Shown piece by piece: positions 1-6,028 of a stretch of 6,028 nucleotides of DNA. Source of the stretch: a virus (Duplodnaviria > Heunggongvirae > Uroviricota > Caudoviricetes); the IMG/VR virus record IMGVR_UViG_2778261084_000002. One strand, given 5' to 3'. The position numbers and the translations under genes were made by a program. The stretch's first letter is position 1, and each line of letters begins with the position of its first letter. The notes beneath the pieces were generated by a model that ran no database searches, had not been told where the DNA came from, and was given only the letters and a program-made list of their open reading frames with translations.

Positions 1-357
1 CTTGCCGTTCGTGGGGAGTGGCAGGAGCGGAAGATTGCGCAGGTCAGTAAGCCTGCCCCCGCAATTAATATCACACCCGTGGTCCCGGCTCCGCTGCCTC
101 CGGCGCTGGTCCCTGTTGTTGCGGCCAGCTCCCGCCCGGTGGCGGAGGCCATACGATCGCCAGTGGCATCAGTTCCTGCAGCTTCCCGTAATCGGGAGCC
201 GGTTGCCTCCGGATTTGGCGGTGAAATTCATGTTCATCTGCATAACGTTGTTACGCAGAATCCCCGCGAACTTGCGAAACTGGTAGGTGAAATGGTCAGG
301 GCAGAAATGGAACGGCGCGCCCGTGCCGGGCGTGGCAGTTTTTACGATAAAGATTGA
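1..357 (+). CDS. 3' end of a phage tail gene, 5'-truncated by the window edge; Pro/Ala-rich C-terminus lying directly upstream of the gpU-like gene, so possibly a tape-measure (P2 gpT-like) C-terminus
   Basis: Frame 1 is open from base 1 to TGA at 355-357. The mirror copy at 5672..6028 differs in this frame by synonymous changes (ccc/cct, gtc/gtt) and one V/I replacement, whereas the overlapping frame-2 ORF 2..286 accumulates replacements between copies. A GAGGAG Shine-Dalgarno for the next gene sits at 356-361. Product assignment is by gene order only. Confidence 0.45.
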   Translation, partial: LAVRGEWQERKIAQVSKPAPAINITPVVPAPLPPALVPVVAASSRPVAEAIRSPVASVPAASRNREPVASGFGGEIHVHLHNVVTQNPRELAKLVGEMVRAEMERRARAGRGSFYDKD

Positions 358-363
358 GGAGTC

Positions 364-858
364 ATGGCCATGATGATGATCTACGGCATGTTTGTTTTTG
401 AGCTGCGCACATTGCCGCATCAGCAGTTACAGCAAAACAAAAGCTGGCGGCATGTGAAAAATGAACGCGTTAACCGTTCAGCAAGCTGGCAGTATATCGG
501 TGCAGGAGATGATCGCATCGTTCTTTCTGGTGTGCTTTATCCTGAAATTACAGGTGGCGAAGTATCGCTGTCGCTGCTGACCACGCAGGCGTATACAGGA
601 CGACCCTGGCCTCTGATTGATGGCGTCGGGCAGATTTACGGCATGTATGTGCTGACTGAAACGAATACGACCCGTTCCGAGTTTGATCGCTACGGTAAGG
701 CGAAAAAGATAGAATTTTCACTGACCCTTGAACGCTGTGATGAGGATTTGCGGGAGCGCCTGCAATCCTCATCGTTCAGTGATATGCTGTCCGGCTTCAA
801 AGATAAGGTGACATCATCTCTTAACAGCGCGGCCAGTTCAGTTAAAGGGCTGTTCTGA
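364..858 (+). CDS. phage tail protein, P2 gpU-like (164 aa)
   Basis: ATG ORF with GAGGAG at 356-361; alternative in-frame ATGs at 370/373/376 have better spacing. The translation (YGMFVFELRTLPHQ ... IVLSGVLYPEITGG ... RPWPLIDGVGQIYGMYVL ... IEFSLTLERCDE) matches my recollection of the P2 GpU tail protein family. The mirror copy at 5171..5665 differs by 15 nt, 12 of them synonymous. Confidence 0.65.
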   Translation: MAMMMIYGMFVFELRTLPHQQLQQNKSWRHVKNERVNRSASWQYIGAGDDRIVLSGVLYPEITGGEVSLSLLTTQAYTGRPWPLIDGVGQIYGMYVLTETNTTRSEFDRYGKAKKIEFSLTLERCDEDLRERLQSSSFSDMLSGFKDKVTSSLNSAASSVKGLF

Positions 859-866
859 TTTTACAC

Positions 867-898
867 AAAAACCGCTAATGGTCAGATTAGCGGTTTTC
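867..898. terminator. bidirectional rho-independent terminator between convergent gpU-like and invertase genes
   Basis: Perfect hairpin: stem aaccgctaat (870-879), loop ggtcag, stem attagcggtt (886-895), flanked by an A-run upstream and T-run downstream, so U-tracts are available on both strands. The invertase stop codon (887-889, - strand) lies inside the stem. Confidence 0.6.
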
Positions 899-1486
899 AT
901 TTTCCTGAGTCTGCCCGGTTGTTTCTTCAGTCTGTATATCGCCTACAGGGTGATAACGATAAATCGTCGATGTGCCAATGCCGTAAATTATTGCCAGTTG
1001 TTTTCTGTCGTGCCCGTTTTTGATTAGCCTTGCTATTTGCTCATGCTGTTCTTTTGTCAGCTTCGGTCGACGTCCGCCTGTGCGCCCCCTTGCGCGCGCT
1101 GCCGCCAGCCCGGCCAGTGTACGTTCAACAATTAATTCACGTTCCATTTCAGCCAGGGCACCCATCACGTGGAAGAAAAAACGCCCCATTGGAGAAGATG
1201 TGTCTATGCTGTCGGTCAGACTGCGAAAATTAATCCCTCGCTCCCGTAGTTCCCCGACGAGAGAAATCAGATGTTTCATGCTTCGCCCGAGGCGATCCAG
1301 TTTCCAGACAACCAGCGTGTCACCTTTTTGAAGGCGCTTTAAAGCGCGTTTTAATCCCGGTCGGTCTGTCTTTGTCCCGCTTAATTTATCTTCAAATATT
1401 TGTTCACATCCTGCACAAACAAGAGCGTTTCGTTGCAGGTCTGTATTCTGGTCATTTGTTGATACCCTTACATAGCCAATCAGCAC
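887..1486 (-). CDS. site-specific serine DNA invertase, Gin/Pin/Cin/Hin (Din) family, left copy (199 aa from GTG)
   Basis: Translation from GTG (1486-1484) begins (M)LIGYVRVSTNDQNTDLQRNAL with the catalytic Ser in the VRVSTNDQ motif. It has the family's resolvase-type catalytic core (WKLDRLGRS, ERGINFRSLTDSIDTSSPMGRFFFHVMGALAEMEREL) and a C-terminal helix-turn-helix (GIGTSTIYRYHP). A GGGAGA Shine-Dalgarno precedes the GTG. The TTG at 1504 used by the ORF track is probably not the true start. Confidence 0.93.
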   Translation of the reverse strand: MLIGYVRVSTNDQNTDLQRNALVCAGCEQIFEDKLSGTKTDRPGLKRALKRLQKGDTLVVWKLDRLGRSMKHLISLVGELRERGINFRSLTDSIDTSSPMGRFFFHVMGALAEMERELIVERTLAGLAAARARGRTGGRRPKLTKEQHEQIARLIKNGHDRKQLAIIYGIGTSTIYRYHPVGDIQTEETTGQTQENENR

Positions 1487-1540
1487 ACTGAATCTCCCGT
1501 CCAAAAGCGCAAATCATGCCATGCAGGCCAGAAACGGCCA

Positions 1541-1566
1541 TTATTTAAAACCTCGGTTTACAGGAA
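1541..1566. other. left 26-bp invertase crossover site (gix/cix/pix/hix-like), variant form
   Basis: ttatttaaaacc TC ggtttacaggaa: two imperfect 12-bp inverted half-sites around a 2-bp core, at the inner end of the arm and adjacent to the invertase gene. It differs from the right-hand site by TT versus CC at positions 5-6 of the outer half-site and one base in the inner half-site. Confidence 0.8.
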
Positions 1567-1590
1567 ACGGTAAACAGGGCTGGTAACGCC

Positions 1591-2427
1591 GTGCAAAAAA
1601 ATGGCGATACCTTGTCCGGTGGGCTTACTTTTGAAAATGACTCAATCCTTGCCTGGATTCGAAATACTGACTGGGCGAAGATTGGATTTAAAAATGATGC
1701 TGATGGTGACACTGATTCATACATGTGGTTTGAAACAGGCGACAACGGCAATGAATATTTCAAATGGAGAAGCCGCCAGAGCACCACAACAAAAGACCTG
1801 ATGACGCTGAAATGGGATGCACTAAATATTCTGGTAAATGCCGTCATTAATGGCAGTCTTGGAGTTGGTACGACGAATGCGTTAGGTGGTAGCTCTATTG
1901 TTCTTGGTGATAATGACACCGGATTCAAACAGAATGGTGATGGTATTCTGGATGTTTACGCTAATAGTCAGCGAGTATTCCGCTTTCAGAATGGAGTTGC
2001 TATTGCTTTTAAAAATATTCAGGCAGGTGATAGTAAAAAGTTCTCGCTATCCAGCTCTAATACATCCACGAAGAATATTACCTTTAATTTATGGGGTGCT
2101 TCCACCCGTCCAGTGGTTGCAGAGTTAGGCGATGAGGCCGGATGGCATTTCTATAGCCAGCGAAATACAGATAACTCGGTAATATTTGCTGTTAACGGTC
2201 AGATGCAACCCAGCAACTGGGGAAATTTTGATTCCCGCTATGTGAAAGATGTTCGCCTGGGTACGCGAGTTGTTCAATTGATGGCGCGAGGTGGTCGTTA
2301 TGAAAAAGCCGGACACACGATTACCGGATTAAGAATCATTGGTGAAGTAGATGGCGATGATGAAGCCATCTTCAGGCCGATACAAAAATACATCAATGGC
2401 ACATGGTATAACGTTGCGCAGGTGTAA
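1591..2427 (+). CDS. tail-fibre C-terminal (receptor-binding) cassette Sv; reading frame open from 1549 but separated from the arm ATG (1516) by TAA 1546-1548
   Basis: 278 aa from GTG 1591 (frame open from 1549, 292 codons). Gly/Asn/Thr/Ser/Trp-rich composition typical of fibre tips. C-terminus RPIQKYINGTWYNVAQV shares the RPIQ-Y-INGTWYN motif with the opposite cassette. Stop is 3 nt before the tfa ATG. The first ~25 codons inside the segment (NLGLQETVNRAGNAVQKN) parallel the other cassette. No convincing Shine-Dalgarno precedes GTG 1591. Confidence 0.75.
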   Translation: MQKNGDTLSGGLTFENDSILAWIRNTDWAKIGFKNDADGDTDSYMWFETGDNGNEYFKWRSRQSTTTKDLMTLKWDALNILVNAVINGSLGVGTTNALGGSSIVLGDNDTGFKQNGDGILDVYANSQRVFRFQNGVAIAFKNIQAGDSKKFSLSSSNTSTKNITFNLWGASTRPVVAELGDEAGWHFYSQRNTDNSVIFAVNGQMQPSNWGNFDSRYVKDVRLGTRVVQLMARGGRYEKAGHTITGLRIIGEVDGDDEAIFRPIQKYINGTWYNVAQV

Positions 2428-2430
2428 GTT

Positions 2431-2958
2431 ATGCAGCATTTAAAGAACATTAAGTCAGGTAATCCAAAAACAAAAGAGCAATATCAGCTAACAAAGAATT
2501 TTGATGTTATCTGGTTATGGTCCGAAGACGGAAAAAACTGGTATGAGGAAGTGAAGAACTTTCAGCCAGACACAATAAAGATTGTTTACGATGAAAATAA
2601 TATTATTGTCGCTATCACCAGAGATGCCTCAACGCTTAATCCCGAAGGCTTTAGTGTCGTTGAGATTCCAGATATAACAGCCAATCGTCGTGCCGATGAT
2701 TCAGGGAAGTGGATGTTTAAGGACGGAACTGTGGTTAAACGGATTTATACGACAGATGAGCAGCAACAACAGGCAGAATCACAAAAGGCCGCATTGCTTT
2801 CCGAAGCTGAATCAGTCATCCAGCCGCTGGAACGCGCTGTCAGGCTGAATATGGCAACAGACGAGGAACGCACACGACTGGAAGCATGGGAACGTTACAG
2901 TGTTCTGGTCAACCGTGTGGATACGGCAAATCCTGAATGGCCACAAAAGCCTGAATAA
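2431..2958 (+). CDS. tail-fibre assembly protein (Tfa; Mu U / e14 TfaE-like chaperone), 175 aa
   Basis: ATG preceded by AGGTG. N-terminus [24 protein letters not shown]...EDGKNWYEE...FQPDT...[27 protein letters not shown] is the conserved Tfa N-domain, with a divergent C-terminal third. Tightly coupled to the upstream fibre cassette. Confidence 0.9.
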
Positions 2959-2963
2959 AAATT

Positions 2964-2983
2964 AAGGCCCGATAGAGGGCCTT
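2964..2983. terminator. short hairpin between the convergent tfa genes (possible bidirectional terminator)
   Basis: aaggccc (2964-2970), loop gataga, gggcctt (2977-2983), preceded by an A-rich run and lying in the 28-bp gap between the two stop codons. The stem is only 7 bp and the T-tract is weak. Confidence 0.35.
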
Positions 2984-2986
2984 GTC

Positions 2987-3520
2987 TCATTCAGGTTGTT
3001 CGGGAAATGTTACTGGCAGGCTGGAGGTGTCTGTGGATTCGACTTTCTGCGCGTAGAGCATCCACTCGGTTAATTTTTGTTTATTCTCGTCGGAAATGAT
3101 GCCCAGCCGTAGCTGTGAGTCCCATAGCTGGGTTTTATCCCTGACAAGTTGCAACAGGCTTTGCTTTTCATTCTCTGCCTGCTGCCTCTGTTCCTCCTCG
3201 GTATAAGTTCGCTTTATCACTACGCCATCTTTGAACATCCATTTACCCGAAATATCAGCCCGGCGATTTGCTGTAATATCAGGAACCTCAACGACGCTTG
3301 CGCCTTCTGGATTAATTGCTGAAACATCCTTTTCAATACAAATAATAACGTCGTTGTGGTCATAGACCATTTTCAACGTATCAGGCTGAAAGTTCTTTTG
3401 TTCCTCATACCAGTTTTTCCCATCCTCTGTATAAAGCCATTTGATGTTAAATTGTTTCGTTAGCTGGTATTGTTCTTTTGTTTTAGGGTTGCCAGCAGTA
3501 ATATTTTTTAAGTGCATCAT
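2987..3520 (-). CDS. tail-fibre assembly protein Tfa' (second, divergent copy), 177 aa
   Basis: [24 protein letters not shown]...EDGKNWYEE...FQPDT...[30 protein letters not shown]: about 70% identical to the other Tfa over the N-terminal ~105 aa, with an unrelated C-terminus. GGGGAG Shine-Dalgarno upstream; start is 2 nt after the Sv' stop. Confidence 0.9.
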   Translation of the reverse strand: MMHLKNITAGNPKTKEQYQLTKQFNIKWLYTEDGKNWYEEQKNFQPDTLKMVYDHNDVIICIEKDVSAINPEGASVVEVPDITANRRADISGKWMFKDGVVIKRTYTEEEQRQQAENEKQSLLQLVRDKTQLWDSQLRLGIISDENKQKLTEWMLYAQKVESTDTSSLPVTFPEQPE

Positions 3521-3522
3521 AA

Positions 3523-4518
3523 TTAAATACTCCCCGCGTTATACCACGTTCCATTAATGCAATACTGAATTGGCCTTGCCTGAGTTGTATCAATTAATGC
3601 ATCACGGTTTCCGTTAACTGAACCCGTAACGACATAACCTGACCTGTCAGACCAGCCGGGACCATTCCATGTCTGAACAGATGACAGACCGCCAAGGCGA
3701 ATACCTGTAATAAACCTTGAGTTACATTCTGCCTGCGTATATGCACCAACATCTCCCGCAGAGGGTTTGCGGGTCGTGGTGTAAAACTCTGACCAGTCAG
3801 CCTCAAATCCATAACCATCACGCGCTGAACGATAAAAAATACCGCCGTTCCTGTAATTCACGCGGAACTGTACAGCAGGGCAGCTCCCCGTATTCATATT
3901 GAAGTGGAGGATTAATGTCGATGCGCCACCAATATTTGCGTTATAGACCCCGCTATTCCAGTTCCAGCCAACAGCTTTATCATTTCCGACAGTGCTTCCT
4001 GTTTGCCCTAAAGCAAATGCAGGCTGCTGGTTTTTCGTGTTGTAGTCTCGTCGCCAGCCAGGAGCATAAGCATCACCATGATTAATATAGGTGAATTGAG
4101 CGTTAGTAATTCCGCCGCCGCTGGACGTACTCGGCGTAGTAACGCGTATGGTCATTGCGCCGCGAGTGCCAATAACTTCCACCACAGCACCTGCAAGACA
4201 AATATTTCCGCAACCTGTATCTGTAATGACCTTATTATTTGCATAAGCCCATGAGCCTTTGCACATCCAGTAAGGATGGTTAAATGCTCCCTGACTCTCC
4301 AGCCACGAAATAAATTGCGCGGTTGTCCAGACCTGACTATCGCCACCAATATTCAGCCATGAGCTATATGCCCGGCAGGCACCAATATTTTTGGTGAAGG
4401 TATCTTTTCCTGGAATATCTGCACCGTTCTGATTTTTCTGTAATGCGCCAGAAGCCTGATTTACCGTTTCCAGTAAACCGAGGTTTTGGATAATGGCCGT
4501 TTCCGGCCTGCATGGCAT
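3523..4518 (-). CDS. tail-fibre C-terminal (receptor-binding) cassette Sv', 331 aa, currently in frame with an ATG located in the right arm
   Basis: ORF runs from ATG 4518-4516 through the right crossover site into the segment, so MPCRPETAII is arm-encoded and QNLGLLETVNQ... begins within the site. C-terminus RPIQYCINGTWYNAGSI carries the shared motif. No good Shine-Dalgarno precedes the ATG, and an in-frame TGA lies 7 codons upstream, so there is no longer constant N-terminal part. Confidence 0.8.
   Translation of the reverse strand: MPCRPETAIIQNLGLLETVNQASGALQKNQNGADIPGKDTFTKNIGACRAYSSWLNIGGDSQVWTTAQFISWLESQGAFNHPYWMCKGSWAYANNKVITDTGCGNICLAGAVVEVIGTRGAMTIRVTTPSTSSGGGITNAQFTYINHGDAYAPGWRRDYNTKNQQPAFALGQTGSTVGNDKAVGWNWNSGVYNANIGGASTLILHFNMNTGSCPAVQFRVNYRNGGIFYRSARDGYGFEADWSEFYTTTRKPSAGDVGAYTQAECNSRFITGIRLGGLSSVQTWNGPGWSDRSGYVVTGSVNGNRDALIDTTQARPIQYCINGTWYNAGSI
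4466..4494 (+). promoter_or_regulatory. putative sigma70 promoter for the right invertase, overlapping the crossover site
   Basis: -10 candidate GATAAT (4489-4494) with a weak -35 TTTCCA (4467-4472) and 16-bp spacer, ~55 bp upstream of GTG 4548. The mirror position in the left arm (1540..1567, - strand) has AATAAT. Based on sequence inspection only; in characterised Din systems (as I recall for Mu gin and P1 cin) the invertase promoter sits at the adjacent crossover site. Confidence 0.25.
4468..4493. other. right 26-bp invertase crossover site (gix/cix/pix/hix-like), canonical-looking form
   Basis: + strand ttccagtaaaccgaggttttggataa; - strand ttatccaaaacc TC ggtttactggaa. In inverted orientation relative to the left site and 55 bp upstream of the invertase start. 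Confidence 0.8.
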
Positions 4519-4547
4519 GATTTGCGCTTTTGGACGGGAGATTCAGC

Positions 4548-5135
4548 GTGCTGATTGGCTATGTAAGGGTATCAACAAATGACCAGAATACAGACTTGCA
4601 ACGAAACGCTCTTGTTTGTGCAGGATGCGAACAAATATTTGAAGATAAATTAAGCGGGACAAAGACAGACCGACCGGGATTAAAACGCGCTTTAAAGCGC
4701 CTTCAAAAAGGTGACACGCTGGTTGTCTGGAAACTGGATCGCCTCGGGCGAAGCATGAAACATCTGATTTCTCTCGTCGGGGAACTACGGGAGCGAGGGA
4801 TTAATTTTCGCAGTCTGACCGACAGCATAGATACATCTTCTCCAATGGGGCGTTTTTTCTTCCACGTGATGGGTGCCCTAGCTGAAATGGAACGTGAATT
4901 AATTGTTGAACGTACACTGGCCGGACTGGCGGCAGCGCGCGCACGGGGGCGCACAGGCGGACGTCGACCGAAGCTGACAAAAGAACAGCATGAGCAAATA
5001 GCAAGGCTGATTAAAAACGGTCACGACAGAAAACAACTGGCAATAATTTACGGCATTGGTACATCGACGATTTATCGTTACCACCCCGCAGGAGAATCAA
5101 GCGGAACAATAGAGAAGAGTCAGAAAACAAAATAA
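4548..5135 (+). CDS. site-specific serine DNA invertase, Gin/Pin/Cin/Hin (Din) family, right copy (195 aa from GTG)
   Basis: Same core protein as the left copy (12 nucleotide differences, all synonymous, by hand alignment) but a different C-terminal tail after ...IYRYHP (AGESSGTIEKSQKTK versus VGDIQTEETTGQTQENENR). GTG start with GGGAGA Shine-Dalgarno. Confidence 0.93.
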   Translation: MLIGYVRVSTNDQNTDLQRNALVCAGCEQIFEDKLSGTKTDRPGLKRALKRLQKGDTLVVWKLDRLGRSMKHLISLVGELRERGINFRSLTDSIDTSSPMGRFFFHVMGALAEMERELIVERTLAGLAAARARGRTGGRRPKLTKEQHEQIARLIKNGHDRKQLAIIYGIGTSTIYRYHPAGESSGTIEKSQKTK

Positions 5136-5162
5136 CCGCTAATCTGACCATTAGCGGTTTTT
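5134..5162. terminator. bidirectional rho-independent terminator between the invertase and the convergent gpU-like gene
   Basis: aaccgctaat (5134-5143), loop ctgacc, attagcggtt (5150-5159), then TTTTT; A-rich on the other side. Mirror of 867..898. Confidence 0.6.
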
Positions 5163-5170
5163 GTGTTAAA

Positions 5171-5665
5171 TCAGAACAGCCCTTTAACTGAAGTGGCCGC
5201 GCTGTTAAGAGATGATGTCACCTTATCTTTGAAGCCGGACAGCATATCACTGAACGATGAGGATTGCAGGCGCTCCCGCAAATCCTCATCACAGCGTTCA
5301 AGGGTCAGTGAAAACTCTATCTTTTTCGCCTTGCCGTAGCGATCAAACTCGGAGCGGGTCGTACTTGTGTCAGTCAGAACATACATGCCGTAAATCTGCC
5401 CGACGCCATCAATCAGAGGCCAGGGGCGTCCGGTATACGCCTGTGTGGTCAGCAGCGACAGGGACACTTCGCCACCTGTGATTTCAGGATAAAGCACACC
5501 AGAAAGAACGATGCGATCATCACCTGCACCGATATACTGCCAGCTTGCTGAACGGTTAACGCGTTCATTTTTCACATGCCGCCAGCTTTTGTTTTGCTGT
5601 AACTGCTGATGCGGCAATGTGCGCAGCTCAAAAACAAACATGCCGTAGATCATCATCATGGCCAT
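5171..5665 (-). CDS. phage tail protein, P2 gpU-like (164 aa), second copy
   Basis: Mirror of 364..858 with three amino-acid differences (E->D, N->S, S->T) and 12 synonymous changes. Confidence 0.65.
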   Translation of the reverse strand: MAMMMIYGMFVFELRTLPHQQLQQNKSWRHVKNERVNRSASWQYIGAGDDRIVLSGVLYPEITGGEVSLSLLTTQAYTGRPWPLIDGVGQIYGMYVLTDTSTTRSEFDRYGKAKKIEFSLTLERCDEDLRERLQSSSFSDMLSGFKDKVTSSLNSAATSVKGLF

Positions 5666-5671
5666 GACTCC

Positions 5672-6028
5672 TCAATCTTTATCGTAAAAACTGCCACGCC
5701 CGGCACGGGCGCGCCGTTCCATTTCTGCCCTGACCATTTCACCGACCAGTTTCGCCAGTTCGCGGGGATTCTGCGTAATAACGTTATGCAGATGAACATG
5801 AATTTCACCACCAAATCCGGAGGCAACAGGCTCCCGGTTACGGGAAGCTGCAGGAACTGATGCCACTGGCGATCGTATGGCCTCTGCCACCGGGCGGGAG
5901 CTGGCCGCAACAACAGGGACCAGCGCCGGAGGCAGCGGAGCCGGAACCACAGGTGTGATATTAATTGCGGGGGCAGGCTTACTGACCTGCGCAATCTTCC
6001 GCTCCTGCCACTCCCCACGAACGGCAAG
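5672..6028 (-). CDS. 3' end of a phage tail gene (possibly tape-measure C-terminus), second copy, truncated by the window edge
   Basis: Mirror of 1..357; the frame is open to the window edge, with one V/I replacement in the last 92 codons. Confidence 0.45.
   Translation of the reverse strand, partial: LAVRGEWQERKIAQVSKPAPAINITPVVPAPLPPALVPVVAASSRPVAEAIRSPVASVPAASRNREPVASGFGGEIHVHLHNVITQNPRELAKLVGEMVRAEMERRARAGRGSFYDKD

Follow-up and report, generated by a model that had tools for sequence, protein, structure and literature searches.

The window, a stretch of 6028 nt that makes up the entire draft contig NNWW01000090.1 of GCA_002486795.1, has at 1541-4493 an invertible tail-fibre segment of the Gin/Cin/Pin type from a P88-like (Xuanwuvirus, Peduoviridae) Escherichia coli prophage. 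The contig around that segment is most likely a chimera in which the assembly joined two resident prophages, designated A and B. The module itself is already known, and its assignment in the earlier note to the inversion modules of the Mu and P1 type was borne out by near-identity to Mu, P1 and P7 and by the occurrence of both orientations in relatives.

The left gix-type crossover site (1541-1566, plus strand) read TTATTTAAAACCTCGGTTTACAGGAA, with two mismatches to Mu gixR and TC as central dinucleotide, and the right site (4468-4493) read TTATCCAAAACCTCGGTTTACTGGAA on the minus strand, with one mismatch to gixR. The two 26-bp sites were inverted and their central dinucleotides paired (TC with GA), as in systems of the Gin/Cin/Pin/Hin type. 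The positions first proposed for them were confirmed by the match to gixR and by a chance expectation of 0 matches (200 shuffles). The outer half of the left site, TTATTTAAAACC, was that of the copy-A invertase side, and the outer half of the right site, TTATCCAAAACC, that of the copy-B invertase side. The TT variant of the left site is natural, being found in 19AR1724 and in four IMG/VR contigs; the left-junction 48-mer matched four IMG/VR contigs, of which L026 was found in that way.

Two alternative cassettes of fibre tip and chaperone lay convergently between the sites, again as in the Gin/Cin/Pin/Hin type. The tip cassette Sv (1549-2427, plus strand; ORF 1591-2427, frame open from 1549) matched Gp34_trimer (4.3e-11) and had 46% protein identity with the variable part of Mu S; in finished relatives it is joined to the constant fibre part (Sc) to give a fibre of 716 aa. 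It was followed by its tail-fibre assembly chaperone gene tfa (2431-2958, plus strand), which was Mu U-like (94.3% identical to Mu U; Caudo_TAP 7.5e-38). On the minus strand, the tip cassette Sv' (3523-4485) corresponded to the variable part of Mu S' (98.4%; gp37_C 4.5e-5) and its chaperone gene tfa' (2987-3520) to Mu U' (98.9%; Caudo_TAP 2e-36). A hairpin scan placed a hairpin at 2964-2983 (minus strand), between the convergent tfa and tfa'. The proposal that each tip is coupled to its own Tfa gene in convergent arrangement held for the ORFs and for both Caudo_TAP matches, and an HMM comparison of the four ORFs with fibre and Tfa families, which had been suggested as a check, gave Pfam matches to Gp34_trimer, Caudo_TAP (twice) and gp37_C. 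Both tips ended in the motif RPIQ..INGTWYN, as had been noticed; the description of the tips as otherwise unrelated did not stand, their identity being 24% (E 1e-9), with the NLGL.ETVN start and some 20 residues at the C terminus in common. Sigma-70-like promoter sites were rarer than in shuffled sequence (promoter scan).

Each side of the segment carried an outward-reading invertase gene, followed by a gpU gene and then by a tape-measure end. On the left were the copy-A serine DNA invertase (887-1486, minus strand; 199 aa, GTG start, Ser9; Resolvase 1.4e-50, HTH_7 4e-13), a P2 gpU-like tail protein gene (364-858, plus strand; Pfam Phage_P2_GpU 5.5e-39) and the 3' end of a tape-measure gene (1-357, plus strand; 118 codons), a partial gene truncated by the contig end that continues into a PhageMin_Tail gene in relatives. 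On the right were the copy-B serine DNA invertase (4548-5135, plus strand; 195 aa, Ser9; Resolvase 1.3e-50, HTH_7 9e-14), a P2 gpU-like gene (5171-5665, minus strand; gene call) and a second tape-measure 3' end (5672-6028, minus strand), also truncated by the contig end. A terminator-like hairpin (868-897; 12-pair stem, then a T run) lay where gpU and invertase of copy A converge, and the hairpin scan placed another (5134-5159) between gpU and invertase of copy B.

Both invertases were adjacent to the segment and had a resolvase domain, HTH_7 and the N-terminal Ser, which the MLIGYVRVS start of the protein places at position 9. The copy-A invertase was 85% identical to Mu Gin, and over its first 360 nt the invertase gene had 88-98% DNA identity with Mu gin. 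By homology, the copy-B invertase gene should contain a Fis-dependent recombinational enhancer in its 5' part, where this element lies in systems of the type. The exact copy-A protein occurred in 13761 collection blocks and the exact copy-B protein in 2871, with the normal prophage layout in 10 of the 10 places listed for each.

The inverted repeat extended much beyond the 26-bp sites: 939-1602 was repeated at 4432-5095 (95%) and 1-895 at 5134-6028 (97%), and the entire contig was therefore near-palindromic, with two arms of about 1.6 kb that each comprised tape-measure end, gpU and invertase. The arms differed at 3-5% of positions, about 60 of them outside the segment ends, and the 3' ends of the invertase genes also differed. 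As the arms were two alleles 3-5% apart, two copies were involved and not one, and a simple hairpin artefact from a single prophage was ruled out by the arm differences and the different invertase 3' ends. No mosaic of A and B alleles was found within the arms, each being a clean natural allele. Nucleotides 1-77 were the exact reverse complement of 5952-6028, with the first difference at nt 78. SPAdes runs with k=77 on 150-nt reads. The 77-nt reverse-complement ends fit a vertex of a k=77 graph, and are the mark of a short-read graph assembler only, not of a wrong path.

In a normal prophage, the constant 5' part (Sc) of the fibre gene H lies outside the segment, and the adjacent serine invertase recombines the two inverted 26-bp sites and flips about 2.96 kb. 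The flip puts Sc in frame with one of the two tips, Sv (chaperone tfa) or Sv' (chaperone tfa'), and the exchange of tips changes the host range, as in Mu and P1. Every finished relative had the layout I - H(Sc+Sv) - tfa - tfa' - Sv' - invertase - U - T, in which Sc comprised about 425-470 codons and was on the opposite side from the invertase. In the window, Sc was absent from both flanks (gene calls, Pfam), and neither crossover site was read through in frame by an Sc with a promoter outside the segment. With no constant fibre part on either flank, there was nothing switchable in the contig as assembled; because all finished relatives have Sc, its loss was a fault of the contig and not of the phage.

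The earlier note had further proposed that by inversion one tip would replace the other at the junction with the flanking expression context, and for the window this failed: besides the missing Sc, the Sv frame, open from 1549, had no start context and was shut upstream by a TAA at 1546-1548. At the right end of the segment, the Sv' ORF (3523-4518, minus strand) extended to an ATG at 4518, inside the invertase leader, and its initial 11 codons from that ATG were non-fibre sequence. All parts within 1541-4493 were intact, which is what could be said for taking the window literally, as assembled, as a working host-range switch. With neither Sc nor a fibre promoter on either flank, the left frame closed by the TAA, the right ORF merely prolonged by 11 codons into the invertase leader, and Sc opposite the invertase in finished relatives, such a literal reading is wholly improbable and already refuted on sequence grounds.

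P88-like (Xuanwuvirus) prophages carrying the module are widespread in E. coli. The P88-like gene order I - H - tfa - tfa' - Sv' - invertase - gpU (reversed) - T (reversed) was matched by 1537-6028 of the window. Both orientations of the segment occurred among near-identical prophages: L018 and L021, and likewise L001 and L002, were collinear except for an inverted block of 2961 nt that has these crossover sites at its borders, with 99.5-99.8% identity. In agreement with this, some matches to the window covered 1537-6028 and others 1-4497. Among 5426 finished E. coli genomes (1938 with an arm), none had a pair of arms on the same strand within 3.5 kb of each other, and none covered at least 80% of the window; the left arm alone was present in full in 618 finished genomes (one place per record). 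The arrangement invertase-segment-invertase was found in four draft-derived IMG/VR contigs (L024, L026, L058 and L105), in all of which the second arm abutted the contig end; the arms were the same DNA in 2 of the 4. L024 and L026 were of the simple one-prophage hairpin kind.

The two halves of the window matched different prophage types. Positions 1-2015 matched the A kind, with 1-1546 2 nt off the arm of 19AR1724, and with this left arm (1-1546) the invertase-gpU-T end was present twice. Positions 1550-6028 matched a different prophage of normal layout; apart from four mismatches where the left gix site has its outer edge, there was one. In L028, which has Sc, segment and invertase in the normal order, mismatches numbered 0 over 1550-4480 and 1 over 4494-6028. 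A stretch of 466 nt (1550-2015) was common to both prophage kinds, with 0 mismatches to 19AR1724 (A) and to L028 and L001 (B), and from 2016 onward the B kind alone matched. Position 2016 was the sole informative boundary for the switch from A to B (SNP gradient inside the segment). The interval 1550-2015 is where the copy-A context changes to the copy-B context, through a chimeric join or through recombination.

The reading preferred here, a chimera made in assembly, would have arisen as follows. The isolate most likely contained A and B as two copies of a P88-like prophage. A de Bruijn assembler working on short reads would have entered through the copy-A invertase arm, with the copy-A segment flipped, crossed the 466-nt stretch common to both segments, followed copy B from there and come out by way of its invertase arm; both contig ends would be the points at which the two tape-measure genes become identical. 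All parts were found in normal context elsewhere, with the join inside an exact repeat, and the layout was missing from finished genomes and recurred in drafts, where the odd arm ran up to the end of the contig. The join was presumably made by the assembler rather than by the cell, and such a chimera presupposes another prophage copy or another strain.

Exactly the same contig would result from true recombination, whether at the gix core or within the 466-nt repeat. The palindrome would then be real: two resident P88-like prophages would have recombined and traded flanks at the invertible segments, through invertase action on one gix site from each prophage or through homologous recombination in oppositely oriented segments. 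The chromosome between the prophages would be inverted, with an invertase-segment-invertase junction and a reciprocal Sc-segment-Sc junction, and the 'headless' segment would still flip yet express neither tip. Such an event is compatible with the mapping of the switch in context to 1547-2015, which includes the gix core, with arms that are distinct natural alleles and not one DNA copied, and with invertase genes that are both intact and have Ser9. Double lysogens of this kind of phage do exist: the finished strain EC416 had two P88-like prophages, both in the normal layout. A real palindrome is nevertheless unlikely, as the layout was seen in 0 of the 1938 arm-carrying finished genomes and recurred in draft and metagenome contigs only, with the second arm at the contig end. 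Two such contigs had same-DNA arms, which recombination between prophages could not produce, and the reciprocal product was not seen.

The second copy may also have come from a second strain. As a variant of the artefact reading, a mixed culture or a contaminated library would have supplied two E. coli strains with one P88-like prophage apiece, and the assembler would have joined an arm from each. Both arm alleles are common and occur in different lineages, and the metagenome contig L039 terminated at the same nucleotide as the window, pointing to a graph branch that recurs wherever variants mix. The contig itself has no feature that separates two strains from a double lysogen, and with double lysogeny documented in one finished genome a mixture is not needed; this origin is regarded as quite improbable.

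The switch is textbook biology, and public annotation already shows it in a very common family of E. coli prophages. The assembly chimera carries a caution, namely that invertible segments common to several prophages give rise to palindromic chimeric contigs in draft assemblies, which a sequence-only scan can take for unusual elements. If the palindrome were real, host-range switches could drive large-scale genome rearrangement in polylysogens, and the window would be a tidy case of invertase sites mediating recombination between prophages, of moderate interest for studies of prophage-driven rearrangement.

Among known systems, the G segment of Mu with gin resembled the window in its 26-bp gix sites (one or two mismatches to gixR), in the convergent order Sv-U / U'-Sv' and in protein identity (Sv' 98.4%, U' 98.9%, U 94.3%, invertase 85% to Gin). 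It differed in that Sv of the window was another cassette (46% identical, of the Gp34_trimer type), and in that the phage here was P2-like and not Mu-like. In Mu, Sc lies to the left of the segment and gin to the right, whereas the window had an invertase on both sides.

The C segment of P1 and P7 with cin follows the same logic, and P7 and many P1-like E. coli plasmids of 90-100 kb had about 95% DNA identity with the window over 1603-4446. Their flanks were unrelated, with R, 16 and lydAB in P1 and the P2-type I, U and T here. The inverted repeats of the P1 C segment are 0.6 kb long, and the segment-intrinsic repeat of the window was about 62 nt. The P segment of e14 with pin in E. coli K-12 likewise belongs to a prophage and switches fibre tips through an invertase; the tail module of e14 is not P2-like.

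P88 (Xuanwuvirus P88, Peduoviridae) had 95.8% DNA identity over 1537-6028 and the same gene order of fibre, tfa, tfa', Sv', invertase, gpU and tape measure; unlike the window, P88 and all finished relatives had a single invertase, with Sc on the other side. P88 is an inducible phage whose host range is set by the fibre C-terminus, and its description does not discuss inversion (PMC5285337). Palindromes produced by assemblers at invertible segments shared with the window the same kind of flank on entry and exit, the reverse-complement ends and the confinement to drafts, and differed from it in that the arms of the window were two alleles 3-5% apart.

The window was a near-palindrome over its whole length, with 97% complementarity between 1-895 and 5134-6028 and 95% between 939-1602 and 4432-5095 (repeat search); the 3' ends of two invertase genes (896-938 vs. 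5096-5133) were the only unlike stretch between the arms. The left arm held the end of a tape-measure gene (1-357, + strand), a P2 gpU-like tail gene (364-858, +), a hairpin (868-897) and a serine invertase (887-1486, -; Pfam Resolvase and HTH_7), and the right arm a second invertase (4548-5135, +; Pfam Resolvase and HTH_7), a second gpU (5171-5665, -), a hairpin between these two, and a second tape-measure end (5672-6028, -). Enclosed by 26-bp crossover sites at 1541-1566 and 4468-4493 (2 and 1 mismatches to Mu gixR; none expected in shuffled sequence) were the fibre tip Sv (1549/1591-2427, +; Pfam Gp34_trimer), its chaperone tfa (2431-2958, +; Pfam Caudo_TAP), a hairpin (2964-2983), the chaperone tfa' (2987-3520, -; Pfam Caudo_TAP) and the fibre tip Sv' (3523-4485/4518, -; Pfam gp37_C).

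The earlier note had described an invertase-driven host-range switch at 1541-4493, and its site coordinates, the convergent order of two tip and chaperone pairs, the fibre and Tfa identity of the four ORFs and the RPIQ..INGTWYN ending of both tips were confirmed. The inverted sites and an invertase were indeed present, but the note had understated the extent of the repeat and overlooked the second invertase. The tips, which it had called unrelated, were distant relatives (24% identical overall, with the first ~10 residues, NLGL.ETVN, in common). Its claim that inversion exchanges the tip joined to the flanking expression context did not hold: the constant 5' part of fibre gene H (Sc) was found on neither flank in the ORF list and sequence of the 6028 nt, a TAA at 1546-1548 closed the left reading frame, and the right ORF merely extended 11 codons into the invertase leader. 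Judged from its sequence, the segment as assembled could be flipped, yet nothing would be switched.

An exact match at protein level traced the window to contig NNWW01000090.1 (draft assembly GCA_002486795.1), whose full 6028 nt it spans in reverse complement. Positions 1-77 and 5952-6028 were exact reverse complements over 77 nt, with the first difference at nt 78, as would be expected from a k=77 de Bruijn graph if the contig started and ended at one branch vertex; k=77 is a standard SPAdes value. The contig boundaries were therefore set by the assembly graph, where two tape-measure gene copies become identical. A MEGAHIT metagenome contig (L039, ENA ERZ27295837 k119_65295; 1-1217) ended at the exact nucleotide of window position 1, with 13 mismatches to the window over 1217 nt, which suggests that assemblies of variants repeatedly branch at this point of the tape-measure gene.

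Positions 1-1546 were 2 nt different from the invertase-gpU-T arm of the finished E. coli strain 19AR1724. The contig L028, with the normal Sc-segment-invertase order, had 0 mismatches over 1550-4480 and 1 over 4494-6028, and 1550-6028 was therefore essentially a normal prophage. Two kinds of P88-like prophage, A and B, were identical over 1550-2015 (466 nt); from 2016 onward the 19AR1724 segment diverged (93% identity) and the B kind stayed identical. From these matches, the contig consists of a copy-A prophage with a flipped segment (1-2015) and a copy-B prophage (1550-6028), joined somewhere inside the 466-nt exact repeat, which also holds the crossover core.

No finished E. coli genome covered >75% of the window, and the matches spanned either 1537-6028 or 1-4497, corresponding to a normal prophage in one orientation or the other. 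With both arms separated by random filler as the query, a true invertase-segment-invertase locus would score ~51% coverage; none was found in 5426 finished E. coli genomes, 1938 of which had an arm, with the best places all at 25-26%, that is, a single arm. The layout occurred in 4 of 84 IMG/VR loci, derived from drafts and metagenomes, and in all four the second arm adjoined a contig end. Both arms were the same DNA in L024 and L026 (identical in L026 bar one homopolymer slip), 97% alike in L058 and 78% alike in the P1-like metagenome contig L105. Because the layout was missing from finished genomes and recurred in drafts always at contig ends, and because each half was found elsewhere in its normal setting, with the join inside an exact repeat, the contig is probably an assembly chimera, and its odd architecture most likely not real. 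If two resident prophages had truly recombined, at the crossover core or inside the 466 nt that both kinds share, the same contig would result, and this is considered improbable; a mixed culture would amount to another form of the assembly artefact. Finished strain EC416 had two P88-like prophages, both with the normal layout; in this double lysogen (L042, 5500-18500) one of them had frameshifted tape-measure and chaperone genes and appears to be decaying.

In L105 (IMGVR_UViG_3300045988_155300; 208-3050), two different invertase genes (78% alike) faced outward from a 1.7-kb mini segment with a Collar-domain tip, a Caudo_TAP chaperone and a short receptor-binding fragment, and lydA and lydB came next; this contig is likely a metagenomic chimera, since its second invertase lay 208 nt from the contig end. 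A single series of IMG isolate drafts (taxon ids 2526164xxx) was the source of several palindromic or short invertase contigs (L058, L026, L046, L057, L061, L090, L114), which hints at pipeline-specific assembly behaviour. A truncated copy-B element in some strains (L029, L033; locus 6001-7300) comprised the tape measure, gpU, invertase, Sv' and a portion of tfa', and matched 3244-6028 at 99.8%; unrelated genes and an integrase came immediately after it. This natural remnant retained the invertase and half a segment without the fibre gene body. The invertase alleles (199 and 195 aa), both very common in E. coli, had unrelated C-terminal tails (VGDIQTEETTGQTQENENR vs. AGESSGTIEKSQKTK), encoded by a short, divergent stretch (896-944 vs. 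5096-5133) beside the shared terminator hairpin. On the invertase side, the outer half of the crossover site varied naturally (TTATCCAAAACC, TTATTTAAAACC, TTATCTAAAACC; window 1545-1546, L037 8549, L042 7890, L043 6928), the TT form making the in-frame TAA; the fibre-side half was TTATCGAATACC.

Both orientations were found at population level between near-identical prophages (L018 vs. L021 and L001 vs. L002), collinear save one 2961-nt block that matched inverted at 99.5-99.8% in both pairs, the matches overlapping by 42 nt at either end, across the crossover sites. This amounts to a population-level version of the orientation check suggested in the earlier note. The fibre had 716 aa with Sv in state 1 and 744 aa with Sv' in state 2. 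Genome comparison thus showed inversion of the block at these sites and fusion of Sc to a different tip in each state; invertase, sites, cassettes and chaperones were identified by sequence likeness. In Mu and P1, inversion depends on Fis and on an enhancer that lies within the 5' portion of the invertase gene, and host range differs between the two tips; by analogy, we infer that both properties may carry over to the module.

Sv' was 98.4% identical to the variable part of Mu S', tfa' 98.9% to Mu U', tfa 94.3% to Mu U, and Sv 46% to the variable part of Mu S (protein). Both invertases were 85% identical to Gin, with 88-98% DNA identity to gin in the first 360 nt of the gene, and both proteins were extremely common (present in 13761 and 2871 collection blocks). 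The whole segment 1603-4446 was ~95% identical to C segments from P7 and many P1-like plasmids, and the surrounding genes were those of phage P88 (Xuanwuvirus, Peduoviridae; 95.8% over 1537-6028), an inducible phage whose fibre C-terminus determines host range (PMC5285337). Every finished or long contig examined had the order baseplate I, fibre H (Sc fused to one tip), tfa, tfa', silent tip, invertase, gpU and tape measure. Of the traits that define the Mu G / P1 C family, the module had all that can be tested except an external constant fibre part; because all relatives have Sc, its absence is a property of the contig and not of the phage. Both the switch and the phage family in which it occurs were already known.
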